Positions 46,721 to 64,000 of a stretch of 64,000 nt of DNA are shown in pieces. The notes under the pieces are model-generated. The model made no database searches. It saw only the letters and a list, made by a program, of their open reading frames with translations, and was not told where the DNA came from. The stretch is from Escherichia coli (GTDB taxonomy: Bacteria; Pseudomonadota; Gammaproteobacteria; Enterobacterales; Enterobacteriaceae), in the NCBI RefSeq assembly GCF_030013595.1, contig NZ_CP122768.1. One strand, 5' to 3'. The translations under genes were made by a program, and so were the position numbers. Position 1 is the first letter of the stretch. Each line of letters begins with the position of its first letter.

Positions 46721-46782
46721 TGTCTTCTTTCTCATTTCCGAAGATGCGTCCGAAGATGATTTTTCTCTGGACGCATCATCAT

Positions 46783-47826
46783 TCATTTTCTCTGGCCACC
46801 AACTACGGGCACTACTTTAACTTTTCGGTCATATGCTGCTGTCTGTCGTGGGTTCTTATGCCCGGAAATTGCTTGCTTCTCTTCCAGGCTGCCTTCCAGA
46901 TCAGAGATACCTTTTGCTTTCAGATCATGAAATGTGAAGTCTATTTGCAGATGAGGATATTTTTCCTGTGCTGCCGCTTTGACATCACGCCAACGAGAGT
47001 TAAAACCATCACGGGTGTACTTGCCTCCGGTAGTTTGATGAATCACAAACAGGCTACTGATTCCCGGTTTTAATGGCAGAGAACGAGCCAGAGCTATCGC
47101 TTTCTGCAGACGAGGCGACCAGGCTTTGATTTGCTTAACGCCGGTTTTTCCCTGACGAATGTAGATCCCGGAATCGAACAGCTGGTCTTTCTGTAATGAA
47201 AGTACATCACTCTGTCTGGCCACACATAAGTAGGCAATCTCCATTGCCACGCGAACAACATCAGGAGACACTTCATAAACGGCCTGATATTCTTCATCCG
47301 TAATATAACGTTCGCGTGCTGTCTCTTTAAACTGCTTAACTCCCTGACAAGGATTCCTCTGGACATAACCTCGTTCATAACCCCAACGGAATACCCTGGA
47401 CATAAAGCTTTTTTCCCTATTTGCCTGAGTTCGGCTTGATAAACCGCGTTGATCCATATAGCGCCGAATATGTTCAGGTTTGATTTTATCCGGGTCGATC
47501 TTCCCGAAGACAGGCAGAACTTTTCCGGAATATTTTGTGTAGTCTTTCCTGGTTTCGACTGCCAAATCCATAAAATCAGGGGAGGTCATGAATTGTTCCG
47601 CGAGCGCCTGAAAAGTATTTCTTTCTTTTTCGTCACCGACCGCTTTTTCATATGCCAGCCATACGGCTGATCGTGGCGCATCCAATGCGCACAGGCGTAT
47701 CGCTTTGTTATCTTTATTCCTGAATTCGTAGGCCGCTTTGCCCTGGTAAACACGAGGCGGCATCCAGTTATCTGCTGGGTTCTTTCTCTTTCCGGCCATT
47801 AAATATTGCTCCAAAATCAGGTTCAT
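46783..47826 (-). CDS. int: phage tyrosine integrase (likely start at MAGKRKNP or MPPRVYQ, overlapping the upstream xis-like gene)
   Basis: C-terminal catalytic region (...HDLKAKGISDLEGSLEEKQAISGHKNPRQTAAYDRK), tRNA-adjacent. Confidence 0.85.
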   Translation of the reverse strand: MNLILEQYLMAGKRKNPADNWMPPRVYQGKAAYEFRNKDNKAIRLCALDAPRSAVWLAYEKAVGDEKERNTFQALAEQFMTSPDFMDLAVETRKDYTKYSGKVLPVFGKIDPDKIKPEHIRRYMDQRGLSSRTQANREKSFMSRVFRWGYERGYVQRNPCQGVKQFKETARERYITDEEYQAVYEVSPDVVRVAMEIAYLCVARQSDVLSLQKDQLFDSGIYIRQGKTGVKQIKAWSPRLQKAIALARSLPLKPGISSLFVIHQTTGGKYTRDGFNSRWRDVKAAAQEKYPHLQIDFTFHDLKAKGISDLEGSLEEKQAISGHKNPRQTAAYDRKVKVVPVVGGQRK

Positions 47827-48031
47827 CTTCTTTTCGCGTCGTCACCTCCTGTAAATTGCGAAATTTTATTGGGTTCAAGAAATGGCCCCAGGTTGTTTTT
47901 GGGTGCCCGTCAGCCCTTTCCATGAAGAAAATTCCAGCCCGGCGAAGAGCCTCACATTGCTTTGATTTAAGTGGGCTTCCCGTCAGCTCGACCATTTCTT
48001 CTCTGGTGATTATGTCGTGATCGCTTTTCAT
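47768..48031 (-). CDS. putative excisionase / small DNA-binding protein
   Basis: 87 aa, immediately upstream of and overlapping int; SD aggaaagacc before the ATG. Confidence 0.4.
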   Translation of the reverse strand: MKSDHDIITREEMVELTGSPLKSKQCEALRRAGIFFMERADGHPKTTWGHFLNPIKFRNLQEVTTRKEDEPDFGAIFNGRKEKEPSR

Positions 48032-48422
48032 GGTCTTTCCTCATTATGTAGCTTATTGCGTCATCTGCCTTCTGGCAGGCACGGGCAATATCAGACTCGG
48101 TCAAAGTCTGTTTCCTGACGCTGGCCGACAGTCGGCCAATTTTGATATCAAATGCGGAGAGCAGAGTTGCTCCCGGTTGCCATCGCAGCATTGTGATCCT
48201 CCGGTTACTGGTGAAACGCAATGCTAGCGATGGTGAGTTTTTATTTCTGATTAGGCGTAATCAGTTCTGGTGGGGGGAATGCCGATTTCTCCCGCGTGAC
48301 CTTAATGTTTTCTGGCAGGTGTAGCCCAAGTTCGCAGCGACTCCGTGCTTCAATAATGCCATTGGTACCATCGGCAAGTACCAGGTGAACCGCGTCACCA
48401 CGCTTTAATGTGAGTTTAAGCA

Positions 48423-48992
48423 TTAGCGTACCCTCAGCGAACGTTCGCCGCGTTCCAGATGTGCGCCTGGTACCGGGTTTAATAACTCGGCTGGTGGTGT
48501 TTCTCCACGCGCCAGTATTTCGGCGGCAACCGCCTCCGCAGATTCAATCACTTCTTTAATGGCTCGCTTGTTTGGTGTAATAACCGTTTCTACATCAACA
48601 AGTGACACGCCTTCATACTCATCCGGGATCTTATCTTTGCTATCGATAATTACCCGGATAGCCCCCTGTGCATCAGTAAATGTGTTTTTTGCGGTTTTTA
48701 GTTTATCCAGGCCAGCAGCTTGCAGGCAGGCGAGCATATGCTTCCGAATTGCTTTTTCCTTGCCTTCAAAGGACGTCTTACGGGTAGCCAGGCGAGACAT
48801 TTCTTCAGCGCAGGTACTGGCATTGCCCTGTAAATTACGGCAGATGACCATCATGGCGTCCAGTTTGTCTCCCAGTTCTCCTTCCATACCTTCAAGCGTG
48901 TCGGCGATCATCTCTGGCGTCAGTTCGTCGGAGGTTTCTAACAGGTCAATCAGACTGGCATATTCTTTTGCAATAGCGATAGCAGTGCTCAT
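48423..48992 (-). CDS. Siphovirus Gp157-family protein (accessory to phage recombinases)
   Basis: Pattern Y..L..LLE...E...DTLEGMEGE...NL...E..RL..RK...E...R..L..L..AG..K.KT..FT......I.D...IP.EY matches the Gp157 family; stop overlaps the recombinase-like gene. Confidence 0.55.
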   Translation of the reverse strand: MSTAIAIAKEYASLIDLLETSDELTPEMIADTLEGMEGELGDKLDAMMVICRNLQGNASTCAEEMSRLATRKTSFEGKEKAIRKHMLACLQAAGLDKLKTAKNTFTDAQGAIRVIIDSKDKIPDEYEGVSLVDVETVITPNKRAIKEVIESAEAVAAEILARGETPPAELLNPVPGAHLERGERSLRVR

Positions 48993-51214
48993 GCTGTTTG
49001 CTCCTGTGCTGCGGTGAGGGCGGTGAGGCGTTCGGTTTTGATTTCATTCAAACGGCGCAGGCGCGAACCAAGATAAGTTGAATACTCCTTATCACCTTTG
49101 GATTCTGCGGCCTTGCGGTGAACTTCTACTTCCCGCGCAATAAGGCCATAGACTTTATTAACTTCATTGGGGGTTACGGCTGCAGCCAGTGTTTTGGCAA
49201 CACCTGAGAGTCGTTCATCCAGTTCTTCACGCAGTCGGGTAGCATCCTCTGCTTTCTCGCTTGCCTTCTTAATACTGTATTCTGTATTCAGCTCGGCGGT
49301 GTAGGCACTATCGTTATGCATATCCATATAAACATCTGCCGCAAATCCCAGATGAGATAGTGCTTTGACGGTGGCATCAGTAAGAGACTTTTTGGAGGCC
49401 TCTTTTTCCATTACCAGTGCCCCTTTGTTATTTTTTGATATGTAATCCGTGTGGCCATATGACGGAATAAATCCTTTCACTCCGTTCCAGATGTACCAGA
49501 GATCTATCCGGATGGTGTGTACTGACAGGCAGAACAGGGAACCGTCAGCATCCCTGACAGGTTTTTGTCCAATAATTTTCCCTGTCTGATCCTGTATAGG
49601 TTCAAGTAATGGCACACCGCGATCCACTCGCTCCTCCTTGATTTCAACTCCCCAACCAATGCCTTCCATTCCCAGCACTTCAGTCGCACGCATCAAAATA
49701 TATTGTGCGCGTATGGAGTGCAGTCCTGCACCGTAATCATTATGTGTGACATACGCAGGATCGGTCCGCTGAACGCGATTCCAGATAGCCAAATTTGCTT
49801 TGCTCTGGTCATCATTCATTGCTGACAGATAATGCTCCATGCGAATTGATGCAGTTTTTTCCTCGGCATGGGGCGGCTCAACCAGCGCGTCAACGTTCTG
49901 CACCAGGTCTTTTACCTGCTCGCTAAGTTTTTCTTGTGGAGGAGTCTCTTCTGCCGGGGTAATAGCTGCAGGTTCCCTCTGTGATACGGCGTTATTTTCA
50001 GGTACGTCATACACATGGCGAGGCGTGACAAACTGCTCACGCAACTGCTGCAAACTACGTTCTCCAGCATTTGCTGCTTCGCTTTTTTCGCCCTGATTTG
50101 AGGGTGTTTCTGACATCATTCCATCAATTGAGAATCGCCCGCCGCCGTGGTTGGTGACTTTTACATCATCCTTTGGTGCTGTTTCCTTTGGCTTCTCTTC
50201 AACAGCATTTGCATCACGCTGCCCGTTAGCTTGCAGCCAGTTGTCGATGTGACTGCGCAGGGATTGCGGGAAGTGGTACGTGTCTTTTGCGGGGGCGCTC
50301 TGAATAACACCGAATACTGATGCGCGGTCATAGGCAAGGATCTGATCCGTTGTGCGCAAGGCCATTGACCAGCGTTTAAAATCCTCCCGATCCTGGCTGA
50401 TTATTTCGTCTGCCGCTTTCAGGACGCTGGGGGTGATTTTTTCCGGGCCAACGGGTAACAGGGCGCAGGCAATTTCACGATCCAGTGTGGCGTGAGTCTG
50501 TTGGTAAGGACGTGCGGATGCTGTTTCTGGTTTTACCTCCGGCAGCATTTCATCGCGTTTACCGGGATTCTCTACCCATTTTTTTATAAATTTGGAGATA
50601 GTCCAACTGGTCGGGTTTTGTTCCTGGGTATCGCAACTTGCCAAAATTGCATGTACCAGATTATTCAATCCAGCAATATGCATGTACTCGATGGGCTTAC
50701 ACGCCACCATGGCATCAAGAACGATGCGGTTAAACGCGTCAACCTCATCCTCACTGTCAGTATCACTGTTGTCGAGCATCTCCAGGTATTCACGCGTCTG
50801 CGCAAGCAATTCACTGTCGACTTCGTTGGCGTCGTGGCTGAACAGCAGGACGGCGGCGAAGCGTTCACGAGCCGGCAGTTTCATCAGGTCGTTAACCTGT
50901 GCGATATCTGCTGAACCGCTATCTGAATCAGCGGGGGTGTTAACTACCCATTTTTCGCCATCAAAACTGTGTTCTGTGGCAAACGTCTCATCAAACTCAC
51001 CGACGCCAGGGCGCGGTTGGCCCGGGGCATCTTCCCAGATTTTAGGTTTGAAATAGTTGTCGCCGTGGTCAGGGTAGGCTTCCCACAATTTGCCGATGAT
51101 GATGTTCTCGGCAACTTTTTTGTTAGGGGCGTCGATGGCGATGGCCAGCGCCGGGATCGCGCCGTTTTTGAGCGCGCCTTTTTTCGCTTCTAACAAGCCG
51201 TTAAAGATGGTCAT
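48989..51214 (-). CDS. large phage recombination-module protein: ~470-aa acidic N-terminal region fused to an ERF/Sak(Rad52-like) single-strand-annealing-like C-terminal domain
   Basis: C-terminal segment ...LFCLSVHTIRIDLWYIWNGVKGFIPSYGHTDYISKNNKGALVMEKEASKKSLTDATVKALSHLGFAADVY resembles ERF/Sak cores; operon partner is Gp157. Confidence 0.4.
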   Translation of the reverse strand: MTIFNGLLEAKKGALKNGAIPALAIAIDAPNKKVAENIIIGKLWEAYPDHGDNYFKPKIWEDAPGQPRPGVGEFDETFATEHSFDGEKWVVNTPADSDSGSADIAQVNDLMKLPARERFAAVLLFSHDANEVDSELLAQTREYLEMLDNSDTDSEDEVDAFNRIVLDAMVACKPIEYMHIAGLNNLVHAILASCDTQEQNPTSWTISKFIKKWVENPGKRDEMLPEVKPETASARPYQQTHATLDREIACALLPVGPEKITPSVLKAADEIISQDREDFKRWSMALRTTDQILAYDRASVFGVIQSAPAKDTYHFPQSLRSHIDNWLQANGQRDANAVEEKPKETAPKDDVKVTNHGGGRFSIDGMMSETPSNQGEKSEAANAGERSLQQLREQFVTPRHVYDVPENNAVSQREPAAITPAEETPPQEKLSEQVKDLVQNVDALVEPPHAEEKTASIRMEHYLSAMNDDQSKANLAIWNRVQRTDPAYVTHNDYGAGLHSIRAQYILMRATEVLGMEGIGWGVEIKEERVDRGVPLLEPIQDQTGKIIGQKPVRDADGSLFCLSVHTIRIDLWYIWNGVKGFIPSYGHTDYISKNNKGALVMEKEASKKSLTDATVKALSHLGFAADVYMDMHNDSAYTAELNTEYSIKKASEKAEDATRLREELDERLSGVAKTLAAAVTPNEVNKVYGLIAREVEVHRKAAESKGDKEYSTYLGSRLRRLNEIKTERLTALTAAQEQTA

Positions 51215-51244
51215 TGGTCTTTCCTCATTACAGGTCAGTGGTCT

Positions 51245-51565
51245 TTAGTAGGGGATTTCATCAGTATCTGGCGTGTATTCGATGCAAAGTAACTGCTGGA
51301 TTTTGTCATCGATAGCAGCAATACGCTGTTGGGCGTCGGCGACTGTTTTCTGTTTTTGCTCATACAGCTGCTCGACCTGCAAACCGATGATGTCGATTGG
51401 CTGGGGCTGGTTGACGGTAATTTCAATTTCGCGGCTTTCCAGAAGGATGTACCTGTCTGGAAAATTTTTTGACATATCAACAGTCGCAACAAGCAGCTTT
51501 TCGTGGCTGAAAGTTGAAGTTGCATAATTAATAAAGAGTGTTACTGGGATGGTGCGCGCTTCCAT
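51245..51565 (-). CDS. hypothetical phage protein
   Basis: 106-aa ORF with SD aaggag 7 nt upstream, first gene after the leader. Confidence 0.4.
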   Translation of the reverse strand: MEARTIPVTLFINYATSTFSHEKLLVATVDMSKNFPDRYILLESREIEITVNQPQPIDIIGLQVEQLYEQKQKTVADAQQRIAAIDDKIQQLLCIEYTPDTDEIPY

Positions 51566-52413
51566 AGCGACTCCTTGGTGATGTATACTCGGGACCGATC
51601 AGCGAATATTGATCAGCTTCCATAGCGTCAGTGTCGTTGGTCTTTCCTCATCACAAGTTTGGTCACTTGTGATAAATCCGAATGGTTTGGTCGCCGTTCG
51701 GGGTAACTGGCCCGCCTTGTGCGGGTCTTTTGCTATCTAAAGGGTGCCGGTTACGTTTCCGGCGTCGTTATGTTTCCATCACGACCGTACGGGGCTGGTC
51801 TTTCCTGTTTTGAGCTGGTCAGGCTCATGGTCAACGCTGGTCAGGCGTGGTACTTCCTCCGGTCTTTCCCTGGTGTCACGCTGCGGGTTTGGCCTCTCCT
51901 GTTGGGGACTCAGGCACAGCGATAAAACCTGGCTGTGTGAAAAAATGGCCCATCGTGCGGACTGGGCAAAGGCTAAACACAGCAAATTGATGATGGGCGC
52001 CCGGAATCGAACCGGGTAACGGGCAGGGAGTTCCCGTTAAACACCTGTTCACCACAACCGGGAGCGCACTCCGCCATTTCAAAATTTAACGACAAAGCTC
52101 AAAGTTGAGTCGATGAAGTGCGCTCTCGTGTTGTAGCCAGGACTCTTCCCTGGTGGTCACACCGTATCGCCTTGATGGTGAATCAATCGCTCATACCTGG
52201 CTGTGGCTTGCACATTCCGGCTAGCTGCTATGGAGACAACGCGTTAAGGCTCCGCTTCCATCCAGACCGCTTCGACACATGTGCCATATGCCGGCGAAGT
52301 CTTTCCCTCTGTCATCGTGTTGGCGCCGACGCGCAAAATTTGATGCCGTCTTTCCGGCTGTCAGAACGTGTTTCTGAACAACTGCCGCTGGGTAAGCGTT
52401 GTTGATGAAAGTG

Positions 52414-52442: not shown

Positions 52443-52561
52443 CGTATTTTTAAAAAATAATTTGTAGTTAGGGGCAAAAAAATATTCACTGTGTAAAGGT
52501 GTTTTTGTGTTAGGGGGAAAGTTGCATGCCAGCAGCGGCTGGCCTGGAAATTTGAACTGAA

Positions 52562-52990
52562 CTATTTTGTCTGGTTTTTGGCTTCAAGTAGTTCTTTTAG
52601 CAGTAGATCGAAGTGCTCTCTTTTTTCTTTTAGCTCATTGATTAATTTATTTTTTTCGCTCTCAGGCAGTCCTCTGAATAGTTGCAGTAGAGCCTGTTCT
52701 TGCGGGGTTAGTTCTTGATTGTAATTACCCGGGTGTAGCGTGGATTCATCCAAATATTCACCTTCATTCATGAAGAAAAAATGAACAGGGTATCCGGTCA
52801 CTTTTGCTAGCTTGTCTAATTTATCTTTTCTTGGAGTTACCCCATTACACCATGCCTGAACTGATTGAGCCGTAACCCCAATATGGCGAGCTAACTCAGA
52901 TTGAGACCAGCCTAAGTCTTTTAGAATCCGTTGTAGTCGGCTAGCAAAAGCCATGTTTTTCGTTTTTGTGTTCATACCGTAAGGATACAA
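52562..52990 (-). CDS. cI-like prophage repressor (XRE-family HTH, no S24 peptidase domain)
   Basis: HTH WSQSELARHIGVTAQSVQAWCNG; divergent from the cro-like gene. Confidence 0.7.
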   Translation of the reverse strand: MYPYGMNTKTKNMAFASRLQRILKDLGWSQSELARHIGVTAQSVQAWCNGVTPRKDKLDKLAKVTGYPVHFFFMNEGEYLDESTLHPGNYNQELTPQEQALLQLFRGLPESEKNKLINELKEKREHFDLLLKELLEAKNQTK

Positions 52991-53074
52991 GGTTTAATTG
53001 TAGGGAGCATTGCAAATATAATTTGTAATTACAGTTATGATTTGTAATGATGGCGCGGACACAAGGAGTCCATA
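52991..53074. promoter_or_regulatory. OR-like operator/promoter region between the divergent repressor and cro-like genes
   Basis: Perfect palindrome TGTAATTACA (53024..53033), near-palindrome CAAATATAATTTG, repeated ATTTGTAAT; SD aaggag for cro. Confidence 0.45.
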
Positions 53075-53304
53075 TGGATAAACAACTGCAAGACAAAATT
53101 CTTTCCGTAATGAGTCAATCCGAGTTAGGGCGGCGATTAGGGAAAAAACCACAAACGGTAAGCCTCTGGTTCAAAGGAAGGGTTCCCGGTGAAGAGGTTT
53201 TGCGCACATCTGAAGCTCTTGAATGGCGCGTGACCCCCCATGATCTTAGACCGGATCTTTACCCAAACCCAGATGACAGCTTGCCTAAAACGAAAGCAGC
53301 TTAA
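53075..53304 (+). CDS. Cro/YdaS-like HTH protein (start MDKQLQDKIL)
   Basis: HTH SQSELGRRLGKKPQTVSLWFKG; SD aaggag 5 nt upstream. Confidence 0.65.
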
Positions 53305-53362: not shown

Positions 53363-53839
53363 ATGGAAAACCAAGAGGAATTACAAAAAGAGATTTTGAC
53401 CTGGGCGGCAAGGGCAGGGCAGGAACTCGTCACGATTGAAATCTGCCGGGCCTGGTTCAGTCAGGGACGCAATGATGAGTTGAGACTACATGAATTTGAG
53501 GACGCGGACGGCAATGTGGACTGGAGAGCCATCAACAACAATCGGCAGAAAATCTTTCGCTGGTTACGTGGCGAGACAACGGCGGCGCGCCGAAAAACTC
53601 AGGTGCTGGCCAGTGTGATGAAAGCCGTGCTACCCGCAGAACGGCGGGCGCGTCTGGAGTCGCCGGGCGATCCCGTTTTGCTGGCAACGCTGGCGGCAAA
53701 AGAAGGGGTGGAAGCGATTAACGCTGTACATCTCCACTTCGCGCCAGAGATAACTATTCAGGAAATTGACGAAGCAATAGCGGCGCTGGTAGCGACGCGA
53801 GGGGCAGTGATAAGCACTGCGCAAGGCCATCATGCATGA
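53363..53839 (+). CDS. YdaT-family (CII-like) regulator
   Basis: KIFRWLRGETTAARRKTQVLASVMKAVLP resembles Rac YdaT IYHRWLKGETKTQREKIQKLIPAILAILP. Confidence 0.6.
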   Translation: MENQEELQKEILTWAARAGQELVTIEICRAWFSQGRNDELRLHEFEDADGNVDWRAINNNRQKIFRWLRGETTAARRKTQVLASVMKAVLPAERRARLESPGDPVLLATLAAKEGVEAINAVHLHFAPEITIQEIDEAIAALVATRGAVISTAQGHHA

Positions 53840-53878: not shown

Positions 53879-54103
53879 ATGTTAAGACATATTGACCGCA
53901 TTACCTGGCGTAACGGCTGGCACCTGAATGGACGCCCGGCACATGTTGCAGAGATCCAACCTATTTTTGATGGGCGTATGGCTGCCGCGCTTTCGGTGTG
54001 GGAGCAGTATGAATCCAGGAAGGTCGAGTTGCGCGACAAAGGGCTGAGCAATGCGGACTATGAAGCCGGTTGTCGTCAGATAGCCGAAGCTCTGGAGATC
54101 TGA
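53879..54103 (+). CDS. hypothetical phage protein
   Basis: 74-aa ORF; stop 2 nt before the O-like start. Confidence 0.4.
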   Translation: MLRHIDRITWRNGWHLNGRPAHVAEIQPIFDGRMAAALSVWEQYESRKVELRDKGLSNADYEAGCRQIAEALEI

Positions 54104-54105
54104 GT

Positions 54106-55182
54106 ATGAGTCGTTTGCTGATTAACGAAAACCCCCTTCAGGTCCTGCCCACGTTGGCATGCACTATAGGGTTGAATGAAGCCATCGTTCTACAGCAAAT
54201 CCACTACTGGCTGAATTCATCTCAAAATTTCTTCGAAAATCGCCACTGGGTGTACAACAGTGTGACCGATTGGCAAGAACAATTCCCGTTCTGGAGCGAG
54301 TCGACAATAAAACGCGTGCTGGCCAATCTGGAAAAATTGAATGTGGTATTTACTGGGAACTTTAACAGTGATGCCTGGGATAAAACCAAGTGGTATTCAA
54401 TCAATTATGCCCAGTTATGTAAGATTGAAGAGACAACATTCCCTGTGGCCAATCGATTAGGTCAAGTTGACCCAATCGAAGAGGTCAATGTGACCCAAGC
54501 ATCAGGTCAAGTTGACCCATGCGCTAAGGTCAAAATGACCCAATCTCTTACAGAGAATACAACAGAGAGTACTACAGAGAGTACTACAGAGATAAAAGAT
54601 CCCCCTTACCCCCAAAAGGGGGAGGGCGAGGAAATCATTCTCGCTGACGCTCAAAAAGCTCTGAACTACTACAACGAGAAAGTCGGTACACGCTGCCGCG
54701 ACGTTAAACCGTTTGTCATGCTGCTGACTGCCACCACCACCCGCGCTGGTTACAGCGTGGCTGAGATTCAGTTAGTAATTCGTTGGGTTATTGCGACATG
54801 GCGCCGTCGTAGCGGAAGCGTGCCGAAACCTGCGAACATTTGCCGCGTAAACCGGTTTGACGGATATCTGGCTGACGCTGAGGCGTGGGCCACTGCTGAG
54901 GCTGCCGTTGACCCTGCTGAAGTTGTGAAGGGCTACAACGAGATTCTGGGCGACCTGCTACCTATAGCTGAAATTGATACTGACCGCCGTCGGGCAATCC
55001 TGCGCCTGCTGGCACATATGCGCACGCAAACTCTTGGCGCATTTATCGGCTACTTCGAAAAATTCCGCGATAACGCCCCAGACTTCTATTTCGGCGGCGA
55101 ATATCGCACCGGCTGGCGGGCAGGGTTTGATTACCTGATGAAGCCAGAAACACTGCGTAAAACCAGGGAAGGGGCATTATGA
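54106..55182 (+). CDS. replication initiator, lambda O-like (replisome-organiser N-terminal domain, Thr/Glu-rich linker, C-terminal domain)
   Basis: Contains internal ori iterons; followed and overlapped by a DnaB-type helicase gene. Confidence 0.65.
   Translation: MSRLLINENPLQVLPTLACTIGLNEAIVLQQIHYWLNSSQNFFENRHWVYNSVTDWQEQFPFWSESTIKRVLANLEKLNVVFTGNFNSDAWDKTKWYSINYAQLCKIEETTFPVANRLGQVDPIEEVNVTQASGQVDPCAKVKMTQSLTENTTESTTESTTEIKDPPYPQKGEGEEIILADAQKALNYYNEKVGTRCRDVKPFVMLLTATTTRAGYSVAEIQLVIRWVIATWRRRSGSVPKPANICRVNRFDGYLADAEAWATAEAAVDPAEVVKGYNEILGDLLPIAEIDTDRRRAILRLLAHMRTQTLGAFIGYFEKFRDNAPDFYFGGEYRTGWRAGFDYLMKPETLRKTREGAL
54460..54542. repeat. origin iterons: 4 x GGTCAA-NN-TGACCCA (15 bp, each an inverted repeat) at 22-23 bp spacing inside the O-like gene
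   Basis: Copies at 54460, 54483, 54505, 54528; followed by an AT-richer segment with 2 x ACAGAGAGTACT tandem repeats (54558..54595). Confidence 0.65.
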
Positions 55183-56608: not shown

Positions 56609-57019
56609 ATGACCACCATTTCAGGCAAATTAGAGTACCCGTCGGACAAAGGACACATAGACGACGGTAAAAACTATCTCGACGTCATTTTGTGGAATAT
56701 GAACGCCGGGCCACGTGCGCGCACTCGTGCGGTTTTTGTACCAAGACCCAAAGCAGGCAATTTTTCAACACCAGCTCAGCCTGCCCGTCAGGCATCCGTA
56801 GCCGCAGCGCCAGCAGTGAAATGTAAGGGTAAAACGCACATCGGGATCGCGATTCGCAGAAATGGTGAGCGGCAAGTGAAACTCCACGAAACAGCGACAA
56901 CCTGGTGTGCTTCACCGCATGAAACTTACGACAAGATAACCGGGCAGCGCATTGGTGCGCCTGGTCGCTGTCGCCTGCTGTTGAGCTCCATCACTCCGAT
57001 AGAAAAGAAAGGGGCGTGA
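56609..57019 (+). CDS. hypothetical phage protein
   Basis: 136-aa ORF with SD gaggaaag. Confidence 0.4.
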   Translation: MTTISGKLEYPSDKGHIDDGKNYLDVILWNMNAGPRARTRAVFVPRPKAGNFSTPAQPARQASVAAAPAVKCKGKTHIGIAIRRNGERQVKLHETATTWCASPHETYDKITGQRIGAPGRCRLLLSSITPIEKKGA

Positions 57020-57020
57020 T

Positions 57021-57257
57021 ATGACCGGGCAATCAGATTACCTGCCGCCCGGCTTACCACACAACCGCGCCAAATGGCCCCAGGAATACCAGCTTAAAGA
57101 GCACTACGACATGCGAGCGGCGGCGCTGATCCGCCAACTCTTTGAGAAACGTATTCCGAGGGGAAGCGTGATTGAGCAAATCGGAATGACGCCGGATACA
57201 TACCGGGAATTTTTCAGAGAGCGTCTGAACTACTGGAGAGGGGTGATGGAACAATGA
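57021..57257 (+). CDS. hypothetical phage protein
   Basis: 78-aa ORF tightly packed in the operon. Confidence 0.35.
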   Translation: MTGQSDYLPPGLPHNRAKWPQEYQLKEHYDMRAAALIRQLFEKRIPRGSVIEQIGMTPDTYREFFRERLNYWRGVMEQ

Positions 57258-57565
57258 AATACAAACGGTGGGTGCGTGCGGAAGTCGTAATCATCAAACA
57301 ATGTGCAGGCAGCATGACAGTTGAACGTATAGGGCAGCTTATTGGCAGAACCGGTGCAGCGGTACGCACAAAAGCGCGCGAGCTGAAAATCTGTATGTAT
57401 CTGCGGGGTAATTATCATCAGTCAGCGAAATACTGCCAGGAGGATATCGAGCTGGCAAGGGAATTACATCAGTCGGGTATTAATCGCCAGGATATCGCGG
57501 AAAAACTCGAAATGCCGATCGGAGCGGTGAATCAGTTTGTTTATTTTGAGCGGAGGATTTCATGA
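57254..57565 (+). CDS. hypothetical phage protein, possible HTH
   Basis: 103 aa, overlapping start/stop with neighbours. Confidence 0.4.
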   Translation: MKYKRWVRAEVVIIKQCAGSMTVERIGQLIGRTGAAVRTKARELKICMYLRGNYHQSAKYCQEDIELARELHQSGINRQDIAEKLEMPIGAVNQFVYFERRIS

Positions 57566-57786
57566 AAGAACTTTTTCTGGCATTTGTGCCCCGGTTTATT
57601 AATGACCAGATCGCACTGACTAATAATGGTGAACAATATGAAATTGCCTGCAGCATGGTGGATGTGAATCCTGGCGAACGGTATGACGCGATGTGTGACC
57701 TGAAAATATTTACCTGGCTGGGTTGGGCTATTCCGTGTGGAGAACCAACCAATATTCGCCCATTTGAGAGCAGGGAGGCTGTATGA
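57562..57786 (+). CDS. hypothetical phage protein
   Basis: 74-aa ORF, ATGA overlap. Confidence 0.3.
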   Translation: MKELFLAFVPRFINDQIALTNNGEQYEIACSMVDVNPGERYDAMCDLKIFTWLGWAIPCGEPTNIRPFESREAV

Positions 57787-57949
57787 GTGAATTGAAAATA
57801 CGAATGAACCCAAGTCGCAAGGCGATCAAATTTGCGCAGTGTGTCTTGCAGATGGCTGAAGGTGAATGTTATATAAAAGAGTGTCATGGATAACAAGGCA
57901 CTCACTATCAATGATTATCTGTTAAAAAAGCAATCGACAAGGAGTTGAA

Positions 57950-58207
57950 ATGCAGACTCAATTAAAGGTTAAAGGCGGTTATAGTCATTTTTTCTTCGCC
58001 AATATTGAAGTCTCACAAAGAGAGTCAAATGGCGGTTTGGTTGTCGTTAGGGATGTTAATATACCTATTACAACAACAACTCTCTCTCTGTTAGAGAATT
58101 ACGCTGTAGGGCAGGTGTTGACGTTAGAACAAAAGAATGGCGATTTTTTTGATGTGTATTACGTTGGAACTGATGGGAATAACTTTCAGTTTTCAACGCA
58201 CTGCTAA
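57950..58207 (+). CDS. hypothetical phage protein; its 3' end and downstream hairpin are duplicated at 63186..63420
   Basis: 85 aa with SD aaggag; followed by hairpin ggccctg-tgagc-agggcc. Confidence 0.4.
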   Translation: MQTQLKVKGGYSHFFFANIEVSQRESNGGLVVVRDVNIPITTTTLSLLENYAVGQVLTLEQKNGDFFDVYYVGTDGNNFQFSTHC

Positions 58208-58355
58208 TTTATCAAGGCCCTGTGAGCAGGGCCTTCGAAAGCCTACTAAAGTCTGTTTCATAGAGAGAGTTATTTGCGATTAAAAAGGTATTTGGTCACG
58301 ACCAGCACGATAGAGAATACATCTTTCAAAGTACCGCCCATATAAAACAGTTACA
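58118..58355 (+). repeat. direct repeat copy A (~235 bp, roughly 80-85% identical to 63186..63420) bracketing the cargo segment
   Basis: Shared blocks ttgacgttagaacaaaa...atttttttg.gatgt.tattacgttgga..tgatggga...ctaaagtctgtttcatagagagagtta.ttgcg.ttaaaaaggtatttggtcacgacca.cacga. Confidence 0.6.
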
Positions 58356-58479
58356 TATGCACTTGATGACTAAGCTGGCACCAGGTTAACACCATGCGCC
58401 AGCTTGAAGGAGACTTCAGTTATTGGTTTCTGAGGAAAGCGATTCTTGAAAGGGTCATTTGCGTCTGGCAGTCGACCAT

Positions 58480-58527
58480 TTTCTTGACTTCAGCATCTGT
58501 TCCTTTCTTGACTTCAGCATCTGTTCC
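58480..58527. repeat. perfect 24-bp tandem duplication (tttcttgacttcagcatctgttcc x2), encoding GTDAEVKK x2 in the lipoprotein
   Basis: Read directly from the sequence. Confidence 0.8.
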
Positions 58528-58649
58528 CTGCATTGAAACTTTACCGCACATAGCATCCTTAGTTTTGATCCACTGGCGCTGAGAAGGCAGCAACTTGAAC
58601 CGCCCCGGAAATCCTGGAGACTAAACTCCCTGAGAAAGAGGTAAACAGG

Positions 58650-58976
58650 ATGACTAAAAATACTCGTTTTTCCCCCGAAGTCCGTCAGCGGGCGATTCGT
58701 ATGGTTCTGGAAAGTCAGGATGAATATGACTCACAGTGGGCGGCAATTTGTTCCATTGCCCCAAAGATTGGCTGTACGCCGGAGACTCTGCGTGTCTGGG
58801 TTCGCCAGCATGAGCGGGATACCGGGGGCGGTGATGGTGGGCTCACCAGCGCTGAACGTCAGCGTCTGAAAGAGCTGGAACGTGAAAATCGTGAACTGCG
58901 CCGCAGTAACGATATCCTTCGCCAGGCTTCCGCTTATTTTGCGAAGGCGGAGTTCGACCGCCTCTGGAAAAAATGA
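58650..58976 (+). CDS. IS629 OrfA (HTH transposase accessory)
   Basis: 108 aa, leucine-zipper/HTH typical of IS3 OrfA. Confidence 0.85.
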
Positions 58977-59863
58977 TGCCACTGCTGGATAAGCTGCGTG
59001 AGCAGTACGGGGTCGGACCGGTATGTAGCGAACTGCATATTGCCCCGTCAACGTATTACCATTGTCAGCAACAGCGACATCATCCGGATAAACGCAGTGC
59101 CCGTGCGCAGCACGATGACTGGCTGAAGAAAGAGATACAGCGCGTATACGATGAAAATCACCAGGTATACGGTGTGCGTAAAGTCTGGCGTCAGTTGTTA
59201 CGGGAAGGTATCAGAGTGGCCAGATGCACTGTGGCACGTCTCATGGCAGTTATGGGACTTGCCGGTGTTCTCCGGGGTAAAAAGGTCCGCACTACCGTCA
59301 GCCGGAAAGCCGTTGCCGCAGGCGACCGCGTAAACCGTCAGTTCGTGGCAGAACGACCTGACCAGCTGTGGGTGGCTGATTTTACTTACGTCAGCACATG
59401 GCAGGGCTTCGTCTATGTGGCGTTTATCATTGATGTGTTTGCCGGATACATCGTGGGGTGGCGGGTCTCATCGTCTATGGAAACGACATTCGTGCTGGAT
59501 GCGCTGGAGCAGGCGTTGTGGGCCCGTCGTCCGTCTGGCACCATCCATCACAGCGATAAAGGCTCTCAGTATGTGTCACTGGCCTATACGGAGCGACTAA
59601 AAGAAGCCGGATTACTGGCATCAACAGGGAGTACAGGCGACTCGTATGACAACGCGATGGCTGAGAGCATCAATGGTCTTTACAAAGCGGAGGTAATACA
59701 CCGTAAGAGCTGGAAAAAACGTGCAGAAGTGGAACTGGCCACACTAACGTGGGTGGACTGGTATAACAATCGACGATTGCTGGGAAGGCTGGGCCATACT
59801 CCTCCGGCAGAAGCAGAAAAAGCTTATTATGCTTCCATCGGAAACGATGATCTGGCAGCCTGA
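58973..59863 (+). CDS. IS629 OrfB transposase (DDE; expressed by -1 frameshift with OrfA in IS3 family)
   Basis: 296 aa with DDE residues and rve integrase core. Confidence 0.85.
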
Positions 59864-60939
59864 GTTCACAGATAAAACACTCTCCAGGAAACCCGGGGCG
59901 GTTCAACTCTTTTTTCTTCGCCGGGGTTAACTTGCTCCAGACGGTATTCAAATCAGAGTCAGCATTTGCAAATGCCATTCGGGACTGATCAAGGCTTTCA
60001 GATTTTTGCGGCTGAAGTTGTGCCTGCCTCTCTTTTTGCTTCTCCGCCTCATACCTGGCCTGTTCCTGTGCCCTGAGTTGCACCTGTTGTTCCGCTTCAA
60101 TTTGACTCTGTTGGGCATCCTTAGCCTGCTGGATTTTCTGCTGCTCAACGATCGGGTTGATAATGGAAAGCGATGTCAGTAAAGCGGCGCCCACTGATAT
60201 CGGATTATCAGAAGAGGTTTTTACAAAAACGTTTTTCTGATCGTCGGTCGCCTGCACGGTGTAGGTGATACGCCTTGAAAAGGCGTTTGCGTTGTTCTCC
60301 AAAAACAGATTTTCCATTTGCTTATCGAGATTACGATTAAAATTCTTTCTGTAAGCATCTGAAAGCTGGACGTACTCGTTCGCAGGTAGAGTCATCGTCA
60401 CGGTCCCTTCACAAGTTTTCATTGTGCTGCCCGTGTCACTTGATGTTGTGGAGATTTCAGAGACGGCTAGTTTGATCTTGTCCAGTGTGCTTCGTTTGGT
60501 CTGATTAGTGACATCAGGGTATTTATCGACCTGTTCAGAGAGTCCTTCATAAGCAGATTTTTTTAATAAATCCATGAGAGCTGATTGGGTCATTTCCGAA
60601 GAACAACCGATCTCATCTTTTTTGTTATCACAGCCTGTAAGGGCAATGGCGAGTAAGAGTACTGAGTATTTTAATCTCATGAATTCCCTTTAGAGTAAGG
60701 ATTGGTTTTTAAGACGCGGTCTGTAATCAGTTCCGAGAGCTACAGTAAACAACGCTGAGCACTGAACGCATCACAGGCAAGGTAAAAGGTGATATCGGCA
60801 AAGGCTGTGAAACCTTTAATTCAACAGATGGGAACGGTATGCACAGGATCCTGTAACGACGCTCCCAAAACTGGAAACCTGTAAGGCATGTTTTCGCTGC
60901 TGAACTTAATATACGAACCTGCACTATCATGAACATATT

Positions 60940-61436
60940 TTATATCGTTATACCCCGAGTGATTGTGCCCGGCAATGGATAGTGTCCTGGAGGAATTATT
61001 TCTAATGTAAAAGGAAGATATTTAATTTCGATGTGGGATTATTACCTGTCTATAAGAACAATGACTTTATCTGGCAGTAAGCAGACATCTATTAGCTTAC
61101 TGAAGGGGGGCTGTGATTTGACCATTAACGGCATGAGATATATTGTCTATTGGTGATTGTTCTGAGGCCGATATCACGTTAACGACCAAGTAAAATAACA
61201 TGAAAAATTATTTATTAATGATTGCCAGCATTAAATGTAGTGATACCTCATTAGCAGGGTGCTCCGCAATGACTGCGATGAACTAAAAAATCAGTCATAA
61301 CCATGAAAAAAACAAGTGTATCAGCGAAATTAAATCTGGTGAAAGCATTTAATTACTTGTTAATGACGCAATAAAAACATACTATGGAAATGTAACAGCT
61401 AATCTACAGTTCTTGTCAATAGGGGCGCACAAGAAA
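60940..61436. promoter_or_regulatory. ~500-bp AT-rich non-coding spacer carrying divergent promoters for the lipoprotein gene and the NTase/DUF262 cassette
   Basis: No ORF of 60 aa or more; strongly AT-rich. Confidence 0.35.
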
Positions 61437-62027
61437 ATGTTAAATGAATTTAAGGAAAAGCTACTATCCGACGATATCCGCGATGTCTACCAACGATACC
61501 TTTTAGGACATGACATCTGGTATTTTCGGGAACAAAAAAAATCAATAACCTTTGCTAAAGATTATGATGAGTTTAAGCTATATATGTCTAAGAAGCTTGA
61601 AATTCATGTAAATAATATTGCAATTGTTGGAAGTGCTAAGATGGGATTCAGCTTGAGCCCTGATAAAAATTATCGAACATTTAACGATGAGTCAGATATA
61701 GACTTGGTTTTAGTATCCGACAGAATTTATAAATCTTCCTGGATGGCATTTATTGAATTACAATCAAAGAATTATTTGCCTGTATATGCTCCTGTAGCTA
61801 AAAATATTTTCAAAGGATTCGTGTCATTGAAGGAGTTAGATATTAGAGTCGATTTTTTTAATAAATGGTCCCGTAACGTTGAACCATTAAAAAAAGACAT
61901 TCAAACTATTTTTGGAATACCTAACGACATCAACTACAGAATTTATGACTCTTGGGAGTCCGTTGAACGCTATCACATAGCTGGGTTGAATAGTCTAAAA
62001 GATAAGTTACAAGGACAATTGATATGA
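61437..62027 (+). CDS. minimal nucleotidyltransferase-fold protein (Pol-beta superfamily; MNT/SMODS-like), 196 aa from ATG 61437 (ORF track begins at TTG 61413)
   Basis: Motif IAIVGSAKMGFSLSPDKNYRTFNDESDIDLVLV = hhhhGS...SDhDhhhh; low-GC gene. Confidence 0.55.
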   Translation: MLNEFKEKLLSDDIRDVYQRYLLGHDIWYFREQKKSITFAKDYDEFKLYMSKKLEIHVNNIAIVGSAKMGFSLSPDKNYRTFNDESDIDLVLVSDRIYKSSWMAFIELQSKNYLPVYAPVAKNIFKGFVSLKELDIRVDFFNKWSRNVEPLKKDIQTIFGIPNDINYRIYDSWESVERYHIAGLNSLKDKLQGQLI

Positions 62028-63082
62028 GAGCTATTGATCTAATTAAAGTTGAATCGAAAGACATTAAATGGTTGACGGATAATTTGAAATCAGGTGTTAT
62101 TACAGTTGATAATTCATATCAGAGAAAATATATCTGGCAGCAAAAAGACCAAGTGGCCTTAATTGAGACAATATTAATTGGCTACCCAATCCCTGAGATT
62201 TACCTTTGGGCAAATAATACTGATCCTGACACTGGAGATACTAAATATTCAATTGTAGATGGACAGCAAAGGCTAACCACAATCCAGCGATATTTAAATG
62301 ATGAGTTTAAGTTAAGCAAAGCAGCTATAGATGATAAAGAAGCCGACTATAGTGGGAAAATTTTTTCAGAATTGTCGGCAGATAACAAACGTGATTTTTG
62401 GCGATACCAATTCTCATCCAGATTTATTAATGAATCATTGAGATATGATGAGATTGCAAAGTTATTTTTACGTCTAAATAGAACAAATACTACGTTAAAT
62501 CCTCAAGAACTTCGTAATGCTGAATTTAATGGCGAGTTTTTAAGATTAGCCGAAGAAATTGCACAAAATGAATTTTGGGATAATTATAAGATATTTACTC
62601 AGTCAGATATCCGTCGGATGCAAGACATTCAATTCATCAGCACATTATTGATTTTCTTACGAATGGGTATTGAGCAGGATAATACACAAAAATCAATTAA
62701 TCGAGTGTATGATCAATACAATGAGAATTACCCTGAGGCGACTGAGGACAGAATTATCTTTAACGAAGTGTTAAGGATCATATCTCAAATTATCAACAAT
62801 AAACAAGTATTAGAATCAGTTGTAAAGAAAAAAGGCCATTTGTATTTTATATTTGTGCTGGCATACTATTATTTACAGCTTAGTAAATCTAAGCTTGTTG
62901 ATATGAATGTTATTAGTTCAAAGCTCGAGGATTTTTTTAATATTTATGAGTTAAATGAACAAGATAACCCCCATCCACTGGTTGAGGAATATAGATTCCT
63001 CAGCCAAGAGGGTTCAAAGAAGAGTCATAACAGACAGCGTAGATTTGATATTTTGAAAGAATTTTGCTCTTTACATGATTAA
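62024..63082 (+). CDS. DUF262 (ParB/Srx-like, GmrS/SspE/DndB-type N-terminal domain) protein with an uncharacterised ~120-aa C-terminal region
   Basis: Hallmark motif YSIVDGQQRLTTIQRYL; ATGA start/stop overlap with the NTase-fold gene. Confidence 0.7.
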   Translation: MRAIDLIKVESKDIKWLTDNLKSGVITVDNSYQRKYIWQQKDQVALIETILIGYPIPEIYLWANNTDPDTGDTKYSIVDGQQRLTTIQRYLNDEFKLSKAAIDDKEADYSGKIFSELSADNKRDFWRYQFSSRFINESLRYDEIAKLFLRLNRTNTTLNPQELRNAEFNGEFLRLAEEIAQNEFWDNYKIFTQSDIRRMQDIQFISTLLIFLRMGIEQDNTQKSINRVYDQYNENYPEATEDRIIFNEVLRIISQIINNKQVLESVVKKKGHLYFIFVLAYYYLQLSKSKLVDMNVISSKLEDFFNIYELNEQDNPHPLVEEYRFLSQEGSKKSHNRQRRFDILKEFCSLHD

Positions 63083-63185
63083 ATGACGAAAGTGGGTTGT
63101 TTATAAGAATTGAATAAACAACCCATCATTTTAATGTACTCTGAATCCTCTCATTCTTAGTGAAATATTGTTTTTAGAACACGTA

Positions 63186-63420
63186 TTGACGTTAGAACAA
63201 AAAATAGATTTTTTTGTGATGTATTACGTTGGAGTTGATGGGATAATTATATGTTTTCAATACATTGTTAATTTATCAAGACCCTGCGACTAAGGTGTTC
63301 GAAAATCGACTAAAGTCTGTTTCATAGAGAGAGTTACTTGCGTTTAAAAAGGTATTTGGTCACGACCAACACGAGGCCGAATACCTCAGTTTAAGTACCG
63401 CTCATGTACAACAGTAACGT
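63186..63420 (+). repeat. direct repeat copy B (degenerate copy of the 3' end of the 57950 gene plus downstream region)
   Basis: See copy A. Confidence 0.6.
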
Positions 63421-63603
63421 TTGCTGATAGTGTCGCATTATCTTGCAGAGGACGCAGGTTAAATAGAACAAGCATATGTACCTGGTTTTTGTAATATTGG
63501 GTATAACATATGCTTTATAGGAGCGCGCTCAATGACCAACCGAGAAAGAATCTCCTGACAGATACAGTTATTTTCACCCTCTCCATAACATAAGGGAGTT
63601 TTT

Positions 63604-64000
63604 ATGTCGGAAGTGAGTATCGTAGAAGACGCCCCACGCCCAGTAGTCGCCGAATTGGCAGATCTGTTACAAGCACAACCATTTCATCAGAATCAATATG
63701 ATAACTTATGTCGCTTTATGATTTATTTTTCCCTGGCTGAATCAAAGTTAACATCAATGGCTGCTGGCCTTGGTAGAACTGACGCACTGGCACAGGAACT
63801 GGTTGTGCATAACGGCATGGACAGTCAGACCATAGATGATTGCTATCGTTATTTTATACGACGCTATCGAGACAGCCCTGATAGCGATTACCGCTTCAAT
63901 AAACTGGCCCCGCCTGAGTATGTTAAGAATGCAATCAGAGAACGCTTTGTTACGCTACTTCAGATACAGTCTCCAACAATTGAAGATAAAATCAGCTTTG
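63604..64000 (+). CDS. phage protein, 5' partial view (ORF runs off the window end)
   Basis: ATG at 63604 preceded by aagggag SD; open to 64000. Confidence 0.4.
   Translation, partial: MSEVSIVEDAPRPVVAELADLLQAQPFHQNQYDNLCRFMIYFSLAESKLTSMAAGLGRTDALAQELVVHNGMDSQTIDDCYRYFIRRYRDSPDSDYRFNKLAPPEYVKNAIRERFVTLLQIQSPTIEDKISF

Follow-up and report, generated by a model that had tools for sequence, protein, structure and literature searches.

A prophage inserted in leuZ

The DNA analysed here is a 64,000-nucleotide stretch of an Escherichia coli contig (NZ_CP122768.1), henceforth the window. From position 46597 to its right-hand end, it carries a tyrosine integrase gene next to the tRNA gene leuZ, a probable excisionase gene, a recombination module, a leader of RNA modules, a divergent immunity switch, replication genes and low-GC cargo (Table 1). 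The full best explanation is that 46597-64000 represents the 17-kb left arm of a tailed, temperate phage (~48 kb) integrated in leuZ, to which we assign a probability of roughly 85%. A model that saw the letters of this DNA only (hereafter the sequence-only reading) had proposed a lambdoid, Rac-like prophage at this position. Its core, namely that the leuZ site harbours a temperate prophage whose early region is lambdoid, is borne out and all of its gene calls hold.

ARAGORN calls tRNA-Gly(GCC), tRNA-Cys(GCA) and tRNA-Leu(UAA) within the glyW-cysT-leuZ operon. The attL block at the prophage boundary recurs at 99.2% identity over its 126 bp as attR in E. coli HCP5S3_I2 (NZ_CM149870.1), the closest relative found, which is ~99.9% identical over 45001-64000 except for three insertion sequence (IS) differences. 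In K-12 MG1655, leuZ, the annotated small RNA (sRNA) 3'ETS-leuZ and yecA are contiguous, so that the site is empty, as the sequence-only reading had stated. Like tRNA-gene prophages, the locus combines a tyrosine integrase with an adjacent att site in which the 3' part of a tRNA gene is repeated, the same site being unoccupied in another strain. The leuZ gene is a conserved prophage site in Shiga toxin-producing E. coli (STEC) O121:H19 (PMC8767318).

The integrase gene was expected to abut the leuZ terminator together with a Xis-like gene, and it lies 60 nt from the 126-bp att block, with the leuZ terminator at the near end. The closest integrases are those of Pectobacterium phage ZF40 (64%) and mEp390 (63%). 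In both phages the integrase-adjacent gene is annotated as excisionase, and by analogy the DUF4224 protein of the window is a probable excisionase.

A three-way alignment of attL, attR and the K-12 empty site (attB) reveals a single difference in attL, a G at 46663 (GATGAGA in the window, GATAAGA in both attB and attR). All sequence to the right, starting at 46663 at the latest, is therefore of phage origin, and strand exchange took place within 46597-46662, in leuZ or the first 10 nt beyond. The insertion had been placed immediately downstream of leuZ: the site is correct, while the position is not, the att repeat placing it within the leuZ 3' half. The proposed start at 46723 equals the right-hand end of the identity block, and the element starts at 46597.

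In the proposed mechanism, the integrase would recombine attP, carrying a 126-bp copy of the leuZ 3' half and 3'ETS-leuZ, with leuZ; the exchange would rebuild an intact, partly phage-derived leuZ and 3'ETS at attL. The 3'ETS-leuZ RNA is a sponge that pairs with RyhB (PMC6191717). Judged from the alignment, the copy transcribed from the tRNA operon in the lysogen is at least in part that of the phage, with one A-to-G change relative to K-12, and the native copy should be left as an orphan at attR by yecA. We take the RyhB pairing region of 3'ETS-leuZ to be AAGCAAUAAGCAGUGUCGUG, in which case the change at 46663 would fall outside it.

Table 1 Features of the prophage and its insertion site, in window coordinates.
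Feature	Position	Strand	Basis or remark
glyW-cysT-leuZ tRNA operon	46350..46652	+	ARAGORN; Rfam tRNA matches
leuZ, integration target	46566-46652	+	ARAGORN
attL identity block: leuZ 3' half (from anticodon loop) and 3'ETS-leuZ with terminator	46597..46722		126 bp
3'ETS-leuZ regulatory RNA copy, phage-derived from at least 46663	46653..46719	+	K-12 annotation b4759; alignment
Tyrosine integrase	46783..47826	-	Pfam Phage_integrase, Phage_int_M
DUF4224 protein, probable excisionase	47768..48031	-	Pfam DUF4224, 1e-14
60-residue conserved phage protein	48241..48423	-	phrog_2482, 5e-35
Sipho_Gp157 protein	48423..48992	-	Pfam 2.5e-28; phrog_253, 4e-46
741-residue recombination protein	48989..51214	-	Predicted C-terminal Rad52/Sak-type domain, residues ~470-640 (DNA ~49295-49807), then helical tail
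106-residue conserved phage protein, first open reading frame of leftward operon	51245..51565	-	phrog_2479, 2e-50
RprA-like sRNA segment	51938..52048	-	3' half like Rfam RprA consensus; intrinsic terminator 51962->51948
Tentative tRNA-like segment	51992..52072	-	T arm CCCGG-UUCGAUU-CCGGG; weak tRNA-Sec match, 19 bits, E=0.55
Conserved structured RNA element, ~175 nt	52118..52293	-	nhmmer E=1.3e-34, single copy
Two boxB-like hairpins, GAAAGA loops	52296..52358	-	GCCG-GAAAGA-CGGC (52358->52345); GAGG-GAAAGA-CUUC (52309->52296)
PL-like promoter TTGACC-17-TAAAGT, overlapped by OL (52417-52435)	52442->52414	-	Sigma-70 promoter scan
cI-type repressor (DicA/RacR-like helix-turn-helix)	52562..52990	-	Pfam HTH_3 2e-12; NCBIfam DicA 3e-20, below model cutoff
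Two abutting 19-bp operator palindromes, repressor-cro intergenic	53010..53047		Copies at 53010, 53029
Cro-type regulator, YdaS family	53047..53304	+	Pfam YdaS_toxin, 35.3 bits against cutoff of 30
YdaT, CII functional equivalent	53363..53839	+	Pfam YdaT_toxin, 2e-15
O-like replication initiator	54070..55182	+	phrog_428, 3e-73; further O-like PHROGs
Phage DnaB-type replicative helicase	55179..56570	+	Pfam DnaB_C 2e-69, DnaB
Small nin-region-like genes	56609..58207	+	Include DNA polymerase III theta homologue
DNA polymerase III theta subunit homologue	57021..57257	+	phrog_1105 2e-29; Pfam match below cutoff
IS3-family element (IS629-like)	58593..59905	+	ALIL frameshift pseudoknot; inserted in 3' end of LprI-family gene
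LprI-family gene, 3' end truncated by IS	59904..60680	-	RefSeq annotation of intact copy; junction mapping
Low-GC cargo: 204-residue protein, 352-residue DUF262/GmrSD_N protein (NsnA-like), start of 182-residue gene (63604-)	61413..64000	+	

Phage type, prevalence and completeness

The window stops at 64000, and information on attR and on late genes therefore comes from HCP5S3_I2. In this relative the far end of the element is reached after another 48.4 kb, at a 'tRNA-OTHER' feature directly before yecA. Beyond the equivalent of the window lie genes for Q, two holins and an endolysin, followed by a lambda-type head set (gpA terminase, gpW, portal, S49 protease, gpD-like decoration protein, gpE major capsid and FI) and a P2-type contractile tail (baseplate V, W, J and I, sheath, tube, tape measure, X and D). 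The sequence-only reading had taken a lack of attR and late genes as the sign of a degraded remnant; in HCP5S3_I2 both are present.

Because the virion module of the relative combines a lambda-type head with a P2-type contractile tail, in place of the non-contractile lambda-type tail, the phage is neither Rac-type nor a classical lambdoid siphovirus. Of the original label, lambdoid is appropriate for the early region (and for the head of the relative), while Rac-like can be retained only for the YdaS/YdaT switch and a ~100-residue stretch resembling the N-terminal half of RecE.

The int/xis pair was found in 439 of 5,426 complete E. coli genomes at 95-100% identity, ST131 strains included. Only two of the 5,426 match at least 80% of the 17-kb query, most related genomes matching only ~60%. 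The tail and head region of GenBank entries vB_EcoM-705R4, -720R5 and similar is ~93% identical to that of HCP5S3_I2, and one deposited vB_EcoM-type prophage record finishes in yecA, with its large terminase gene (1863 nt) intact. For the early region, no close nucleotide match was found among 50,697 deposited phage records, its own IS excepted. The prophage is a common, already catalogued type at a published site, and is not new.

Several observations weigh against a complete and functional phage. For the studied strain, the window contains neither attR nor the late genes. In HCP5S3_I2 an IS4-family element splits the large terminase gene, a frameshift affects the small one and an IS3 element interrupts the 741-residue annealase gene; that copy is probably defective. 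We therefore weighed the alternative that the element is a decaying, non-inducible remnant, inactivated by IS insertions and deletions, of which cargo and regulatory genes have been kept. The IS3-family element in the cargo region of the window, the three IS insertions of the relative and the mosaic turnover implied by ~60% query coverage would all fit such decay. In contrast, the early genes in the window are all intact open reading frames, including the 741-residue gene broken in the relative. Furthermore, related records contain the intact 1863-nt large terminase with a full head and tail set, and the int/xis pair is conserved across the 439 genomes. A remnant is thus rather unlikely, and a temperate phage remains the preferred interpretation.

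Immunity switch and replication origin

The divergent repressor, YdaS-type Cro and YdaT genes constitute the RacR/YdaS/YdaT immunity module of Rac-type prophages, with the YdaS_toxin and YdaT_toxin matches above their cutoffs. A 19-bp palindrome (TTRCA-N..-TTTGTAA) occurs exactly three times in the 64 kb, at 52417, 53010 and 53029, compared to 0.07 copies expected by chance; three copies were reached in none of 100 shuffles. The copy at 52417-52435 (OL) is located 130 bp past the repressor stop codon and lies over the only sigma-70-like promoter found there, which is an OL/PL arrangement. The divergent arrangement of repressor and cro, the repetition of the operator and its presence over PL are all lambdoid traits. 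The sequence-only reading had called a cI-like/Cro(YdaS)-YdaT switch with operator palindromes, and both the Pfam matches and the palindrome count uphold this. It had also called YdaT CII-like, in agreement with its reported action as a CII equivalent (PMC9986795). In the lysogen, the DicA/RacR-type repressor would maintain lysogeny by occupying the three palindromes, two between its own gene and cro and one over PL, and use of the PL-like promoter would be under its control.

A 74-residue gene on the plus strand separates YdaT from the O-like initiator. The latter contains four iterons (TTGACC-N9/10-GGTCAA, 22-23 bp apart) at 54444-54533, and the presence of iterons inside the gene of an O-type initiator is a further lambdoid trait. 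Three 12-bp tandem repeats (TACAGAGAGTAC-like) follow directly at 54549-54592. These repeats also encode a TESTTESTTE linker of the initiator. In the rightward operon, the O-like protein would bind the four iterons within its own gene, with the phage DnaB encoded beside it. An O-like initiator with iterons and a DnaB helicase had both been anticipated, and the family matches listed in Table 1 agree.

An RNA-rich leader behind PL

No credible open reading frame, in terms of a plausible start or adequate length, is present between the 106-residue gene and the repressor (51566-52561), and the leader displays an A-rich minus-strand skew like that of the flanking minus-strand genes. The 1-kb leader of the sequence-only reading is hence correct as a stretch free of open reading frames, and incorrect as a plain leader or spacer, a chain of RNA modules being found in its place. 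PL would transcribe ~840 nt of such modules: two boxB-like hairpins, a 175-nt element and an RprA-like sRNA with terminator. These would head the leftward operon, ahead of the 106-residue protein, annealase, Gp157, xis and int. Because PL carries an operator, the leader RNAs are expected to be made upon induction.

The same order of modules is found in phage BUCT708, where the equivalent gap is 71% identical. This phage (vB_SmeS_BUCT708, OM816834.1) is labelled a Stenotrophomonas phage, and shares the enterobacterial early module Gp157-annealase-RNA leader-switch-O-like-DnaB; its host assignment may deserve a second look.

The two boxB-like hairpins appear in BUCT708 as GCCCG..CGGGC and GCGG..CUGC, and thus with compensatory changes. 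Their loops contain GGAAAGAC, present in five copies in the 855-nt leader, while the entire minus strand has eight and the plus strand two. These five minus-strand copies lie at 52355, 52306, 51869, 51805 and 51647, the first two corresponding to the hairpin loops; the final ~370 nt before the 106-residue gene contain three GGAAAGACC motifs. No candidate for an N-like arginine-rich protein was found among the small open reading frames. The N antiterminator and nut sites of lambdoid phages are accordingly represented by boxB-like hairpins only.

Between the 175-nt element and the RprA-like segment lies another hairpin. A weak tRNA-like segment with a canonical T arm overlaps this region; ARAGORN did not call it, and it is absent from BUCT708. 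The RprA-like segment scores 34 bits against RF00034 in the window and 50.2 bits in BUCT708 (locus L004, 3358-3477, minus strand), both under the Rfam gathering score of 70, which weighs against its assignment to this family.

A conserved structured RNA element

The 175-nt element is found once in the window and once in the whole prophage of HCP5S3_I2. In unrelated temperate phages, gaps bearing no annotation match its core at 70-76% identity. In the Uetakeviruses SPN1S, Tyrion and PAT1 the element is located between the terminase and portal genes, antisense to both; in P1-like SJ46 it is flanked by a tRNA gene and ban; and it is also present in the Klebsiella phages SopranoGao and ST512-KPC3phi13.3. 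A 19-mer core matched at least 120 IMG/VR contigs. In species-representative genomes, 25 stretches contain the element, and Enterobacterales account for all except three of these. The remaining three come from metagenome-assembled genomes with the labels Oscillospiraceae, Pirellulales and Bacillota (L141, L144 and L154); they contain the exact core and are probably mis-binned enterobacterial phage contigs. A single locus (L026, IMG/VR 2791355294_000005) has two copies, at 3940-4165 and 4764-4992, the second being degenerate with several broken pairs.

Among complete E. coli genomes, 625 of 5,426 (~11%) carry the element, with 154 copies on plasmids. It is unannotated at every E. coli copy and most phage copies examined, and no annotated feature lies at the element among the E. 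coli matches listed. At E<=1, neither 52118-52293 nor its homologues have a counterpart in Rfam 15, and relaxing the cutoff to E<=10 yields a single partially overlapping match, Zeta-pan, at noise level (17.5 bits, E=2.3). A literature search for the core sequence returned nothing relevant, its sole results being C. elegans papers on other subjects, and a preprint on the P1 transcriptome does not mention the region of the element. Identity as a tRNA or tmRNA was rejected, ARAGORN being negative, and ERIC and REP repeats were ruled out by eye only, against the consensus.

Secondary structure was assessed by comparison. A first alignment of 34 copies less than 90% identical was made by MAFFT with no structure input. 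In a six-helix model 97.9% of cells are paired, a value reached in none of 500 column shuffles, compared to 90.0% in these shuffles and 26-47% with partners slid; 11 pairs are doubly changed (again none of 500 shuffles), and RNAalifold independently recovers three of the helices. As the 19-mer used for fishing contained the 3' strands of two helices, copies were re-fished with a 3'-domain anchor and 162 unique copies were added to the 34-copy alignment columns for a recount.

Following this recount, four helices are supported. These are H1 (pair 91/103: GC 94, AU 66, GU 2), the inner part of H3 (pair 117/176: CG 97, UA 62), H4 (pair 226/234: AU 100, UG 33, CG 26, UA 2; pair 224/236: CG 122, GC 33) and H6 (pair 259/269: CG 95, GC 47; pair 258/270: UA 114, CG 32). 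The H5 pseudoknot, in which a CACC loop pairs with GGUG, is probable, with one covarying pair (CG 139, AU 23) that probably represents a single lineage. The H2 pseudoknot (H1 loop GCACAU with AUGUGC in the 19-mer core) was dropped, the five changes seen after re-fishing all being uncompensated. Its earlier invariance was an artefact, because copies had been fished with that same 19-mer. The outer part of H3 was likewise dropped. The frequent G-U pairs assign the RNA to the minus strand of the window.

The strong covariation argues that 52293-52118 is a structured RNA. Two points count against this interpretation: H2 and outer H3 show uncompensated changes only, and the single-sequence fold is no more stable than that of shuffles (z=-0.17). 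Because the single-sequence fold has no excess stability, the evidence for structure is comparative only. Some 50 positions are invariant, many of them outside the helices.

Candidate roles of the element

We give even odds to the broader proposal that the element defines a new structured-RNA family of temperate enterobacterial phages, acting either as a processed stable RNA with a partner from host or phage or as an N-independent antiterminator, and that it is co-expressed upon induction with an RprA mimic, thereby tapping the RpoS and biofilm network. The carriers would be prophages like that of the window, epsilon15-like Uetakeviruses, P1-like phage-plasmids and Klebsiella phages. A processed stable RNA is compatible with a prophage in leuZ, and competes only with the antiterminator.

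The preferred role, which we hold tentatively and at somewhat less than even odds, is that of a stable non-coding RNA acting in trans, with a putative protein or ligand partner, and freed from its transcript by tRNA-processing enzymes. In 27 of 127 loci the core is followed at 164 nt by the start of a tRNA-Arg(UCU) gene, and in 17 P1-like loci a tRNA(CAU) gene ends ~170 nt before it. Element-adjacent tRNA genes are always on the same strand, never the opposite. In the window, the tRNA-like T arm and the sRNA-like 3' end come next. Furthermore, the ~50 invariant nucleotides outside helices suggest a binding surface. On the other hand, an adjacent tRNA is absent at most loci.

The main alternative, which we regard as doubtful, is a cis-acting antitermination RNA, similar to HK022 put or a nut substitute, that would modify RNA polymerase and so let PL transcripts pass the RprA-like terminator and enter the recombination and integration genes. 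The position of the element is suggestive: it lies ~114 nt downstream of the repressor-controlled PL-like promoter, and the intrinsic terminator at 51962->51948 is located between it and all leftward genes. In other phages it typically heads a transcription unit, 30-120 nt past a promoter-like sequence that is often TTGACA-17-TACCTT. H6 and the two upstream hairpins have boxB-like purine loops. No N-like arginine-rich open reading frame was found; if the element acted as antiterminator, this would account for the lack of an N gene. Against such a role, there is one copy per phage and none after PR, whereas HK022 has both putL and putR; a put-like PL/PR pair is rejected on the single copy in the window and the prophage of the relative. 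In P1-like phage-plasmids the element follows a tRNA rather than a promoter directly. Finally, at 175 nt and ~50 invariant positions it is much larger than put RNA, which is ~70 nt. A processed stable RNA is the interpretation we tentatively prefer.

A predicted annealase labelled exonuclease

The 741-residue protein of the leftward operon is labelled 'exonuclease family protein' in RefSeq, and 'exonuclease' in phrog_2489 and phrog_7838. We predict with high confidence, from profile and structure comparisons, that its C-terminal domain is a Rad52/Sak-type single-strand annealase. Residues ~470-706 exist as standalone proteins of 240-290 residues in Pseudomonas, Vibrio and other phages. In PMG1 the standalone annealase-like gene is followed by a Gp157 gene, and in phiC725A and VvAW1 it is found amid DUF1351, DEDD/epsilon exonuclease, SSB and RdgC genes. 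Two of three standalone proteins have sub-threshold Rad52_Rad22 matches.

A search of 1.84 billion cluster representatives retrieved 2,349 relatives of the C-terminal domain. Pfam Rad52_Rad22 (PF04098) is matched by 40 of 92 diverse relatives (best 3e-6), compared to three or fewer for any other family. When the family profile was aligned by hhalign to the human RAD52 N-terminal domain (the RAD52 sequence having been entered by hand), 129 columns aligned on residues 46-176 with E=9.5e-5 and 58.6% probability, and the signature KKSLTDAxKKxLSxLGF was placed onto RAD52 KEAVTDGLKRALRSFG. A Foldseek search of the C-terminal model against viral structures (BFVD) returned informative named matches that are all Rad52, ERF or single-strand annealing proteins (SSAPs), namely 'DNA repair protein Rad52/59/22', 'Essential recombination function protein', 'ERF superfamily protein', 'DNA single-strand annealing protein' and 'RAD52-like DNA recombinase'. 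The ERF-named matches are weak (E about 1e-2), and the ERF profile (PF04404) has no match in Pfam scans of the 741-residue protein or the 92 relatives. The ERF/Sak-like assignment made in the sequence-only reading is supported for the C-terminal domain as a Rad52/Sak-type annealase, against the database label.

The window protein and its domain themselves fall below the Pfam gathering threshold for PF04098, with no match at E<=10. PDB sequence searches with the 741-residue protein and two family profiles returned nothing relevant, and PDB-based fold searches with weak structure models were uninformative.

The only basis we could find for the exonuclease label is a stretch similar to the RecE N-terminal half: residues 232-336 match positions 261-370 of NCBIfam exodeoxyribonuclease VIII with E=9e-13, at 47 bits against a cutoff of 1269. 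The matched RecE positions fall outside its C-terminal nuclease domain. Apart from this ~100-residue stretch, residues 1-470 have no family assignment. A helical domain is predicted for residues 110-330 (pLDDT 60-84). That the protein is a RecE-type exonuclease and not an annealase, as the two PHROG labels and this RecE-like stretch would have it, is very improbable given that no Pfam nuclease family matches even at E<=10, that Rad52_Rad22 is the only recurrent family over the homologues and that the named BFVD matches are annealases and no nucleases.

No RecT family match was obtained in Pfam or PHROG scans of the window proteins. The RecE nuclease and RecT annealase pair of Rac-type prophages is thus not present, with the RecE N-terminal stretch alone being matched. 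The neighbouring Gp157 gene, called in the sequence-only reading, is confirmed by Sipho_Gp157 (Table 1), and phrog_253 is annotated as Mu Gam-like end protection. Annealase and Gp157 form the recombination module of the phage.

Right-hand genes and cargo

To the right of DnaB, the small nin-region-like genes include a theta homologue that recalls the hot gene of phage P1. The cargo proposed for the right-hand end is confirmed as a block of 32-34% GC, compared to ~50% for the phage, to which an IS3-family element is to be added. Insertion of this IS in the LprI-family gene creates a fused open reading frame at 59670..60680. HCP5S3_I2 lacks the IS at 58593-59905 and has two other IS3 copies, at positions matching 49913-49918 and 63178-63184 of the window.

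Within the cargo, the DUF262 protein matches PADLOC NsnA (4e-41) and PD-T4-2_A (2.5e-19). PADLOC detected no partner genes of Menshen (NsnB, NsnC) or PD-T4-2 (B), the flanking 204- and 182-residue proteins had no match, and no complete defence system was found around the gene. It may be considered a candidate defence gene only, on the basis of these profile matches, and could belong to a new or partial defence set.

Implications

The prophage itself is of little weight, since it adds to an already common family whose tRNA site is known. Of more value are three by-products: an undescribed structured RNA shared by many enterobacterial temperate phages, a phage-borne RprA look-alike and a likely mis-annotated annealase family. 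The last is a probable annotation error, in that a large family labelled exonuclease in RefSeq and PHROGs appears to be of Rad52/Sak-type, and has a bearing on recombineering tools and on how phage mosaicism is modelled. If it is a true functional RNA, the element would be an overlooked component of well-studied P1-like and epsilon15-like phages, and may explain read-through of early terminators in N-less lambdoid phages. The RprA look-alike and the phage-replaced 3'ETS-leuZ sponge furthermore provide testable ties between prophage carriage and host sRNA networks.

Comparison with known systems

The closest systems are the leuZ-yecA prophages, including vB_EcoM-705R4, -720R5 and that of STEC O121:H19, which have the integration site in common as well as similar int/xis and tail/head genes; the window copy differs by its own IS pattern and cargo. 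Pectobacterium phage ZF40, a temperate phage of 48,454 bp, provides the closest named integrase (64% identity over 98%) at a similar genome size, with an integrase-adjacent gene annotated as excisionase as in the window layout. It differs in host genus, and nucleotide similarity is confined to short pieces.

The cryptic prophages Rac and CP-933P share the layout of divergent repressor, YdaS-type Cro and YdaT (PMC9986795), as well as the ~100-residue stretch of the RecE N-terminal half with the 741-residue protein. Unlike these RecE/RecT prophages, the window phage has a predicted Rad52/Sak-type annealase domain, another att site and a phage DnaB, and its relative carries contractile-tail genes.

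Similarity to lambda extends over the divergent repressor and cro, the multiple operators, OL over PL and an O-type initiator with four internal iterons, the lambda origin inside O being mirrored by the O-like gene; in HCP5S3_I2 it includes Q and the lambda-type head gene set. In contrast to lambda, the window phage has no N gene, has DnaB instead of the P loader, and annealase and Gp157 instead of exo, bet and gam. It also has the RNA-rich PL leader of ~840 nt, and its relative encodes a P2-type sheath, tube and baseplate.

The leader RNAs were compared with the sequences and properties of lambda nut boxB and HK022 put RNA. They are similar in their position right after PL and in their short G+C stems with GAAAGA or GAAGAG purine loops. 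They differ from lambda boxB in that no N protein is present and the loops are of 6-7 nt, not 5, and from HK022 put in that the 175-nt element is single-copy and far larger. For RprA (RF00034), the 3' half is near consensus, comprising AUUUGCUGUGUUUAGCCUUUGCCC, the terminator hairpin and a U-tail, with 18 identical nucleotides (AUUGCUGUGUGUAGUCUU) in BUCT708. In contrast to RprA, the 5' half is not conserved, and the segment is located in a phage operon leader rather than being a free-standing host gene.

Finally, the annealase domain has the profile alignment and the recombination-module context in common with Rad52/Sak SSAPs (PF04098), as represented by lactococcal phage Sak and the human RAD52 N-terminal domain, and differs from these in its position at the C-terminus of a 741-residue protein, behind ~470 residues.

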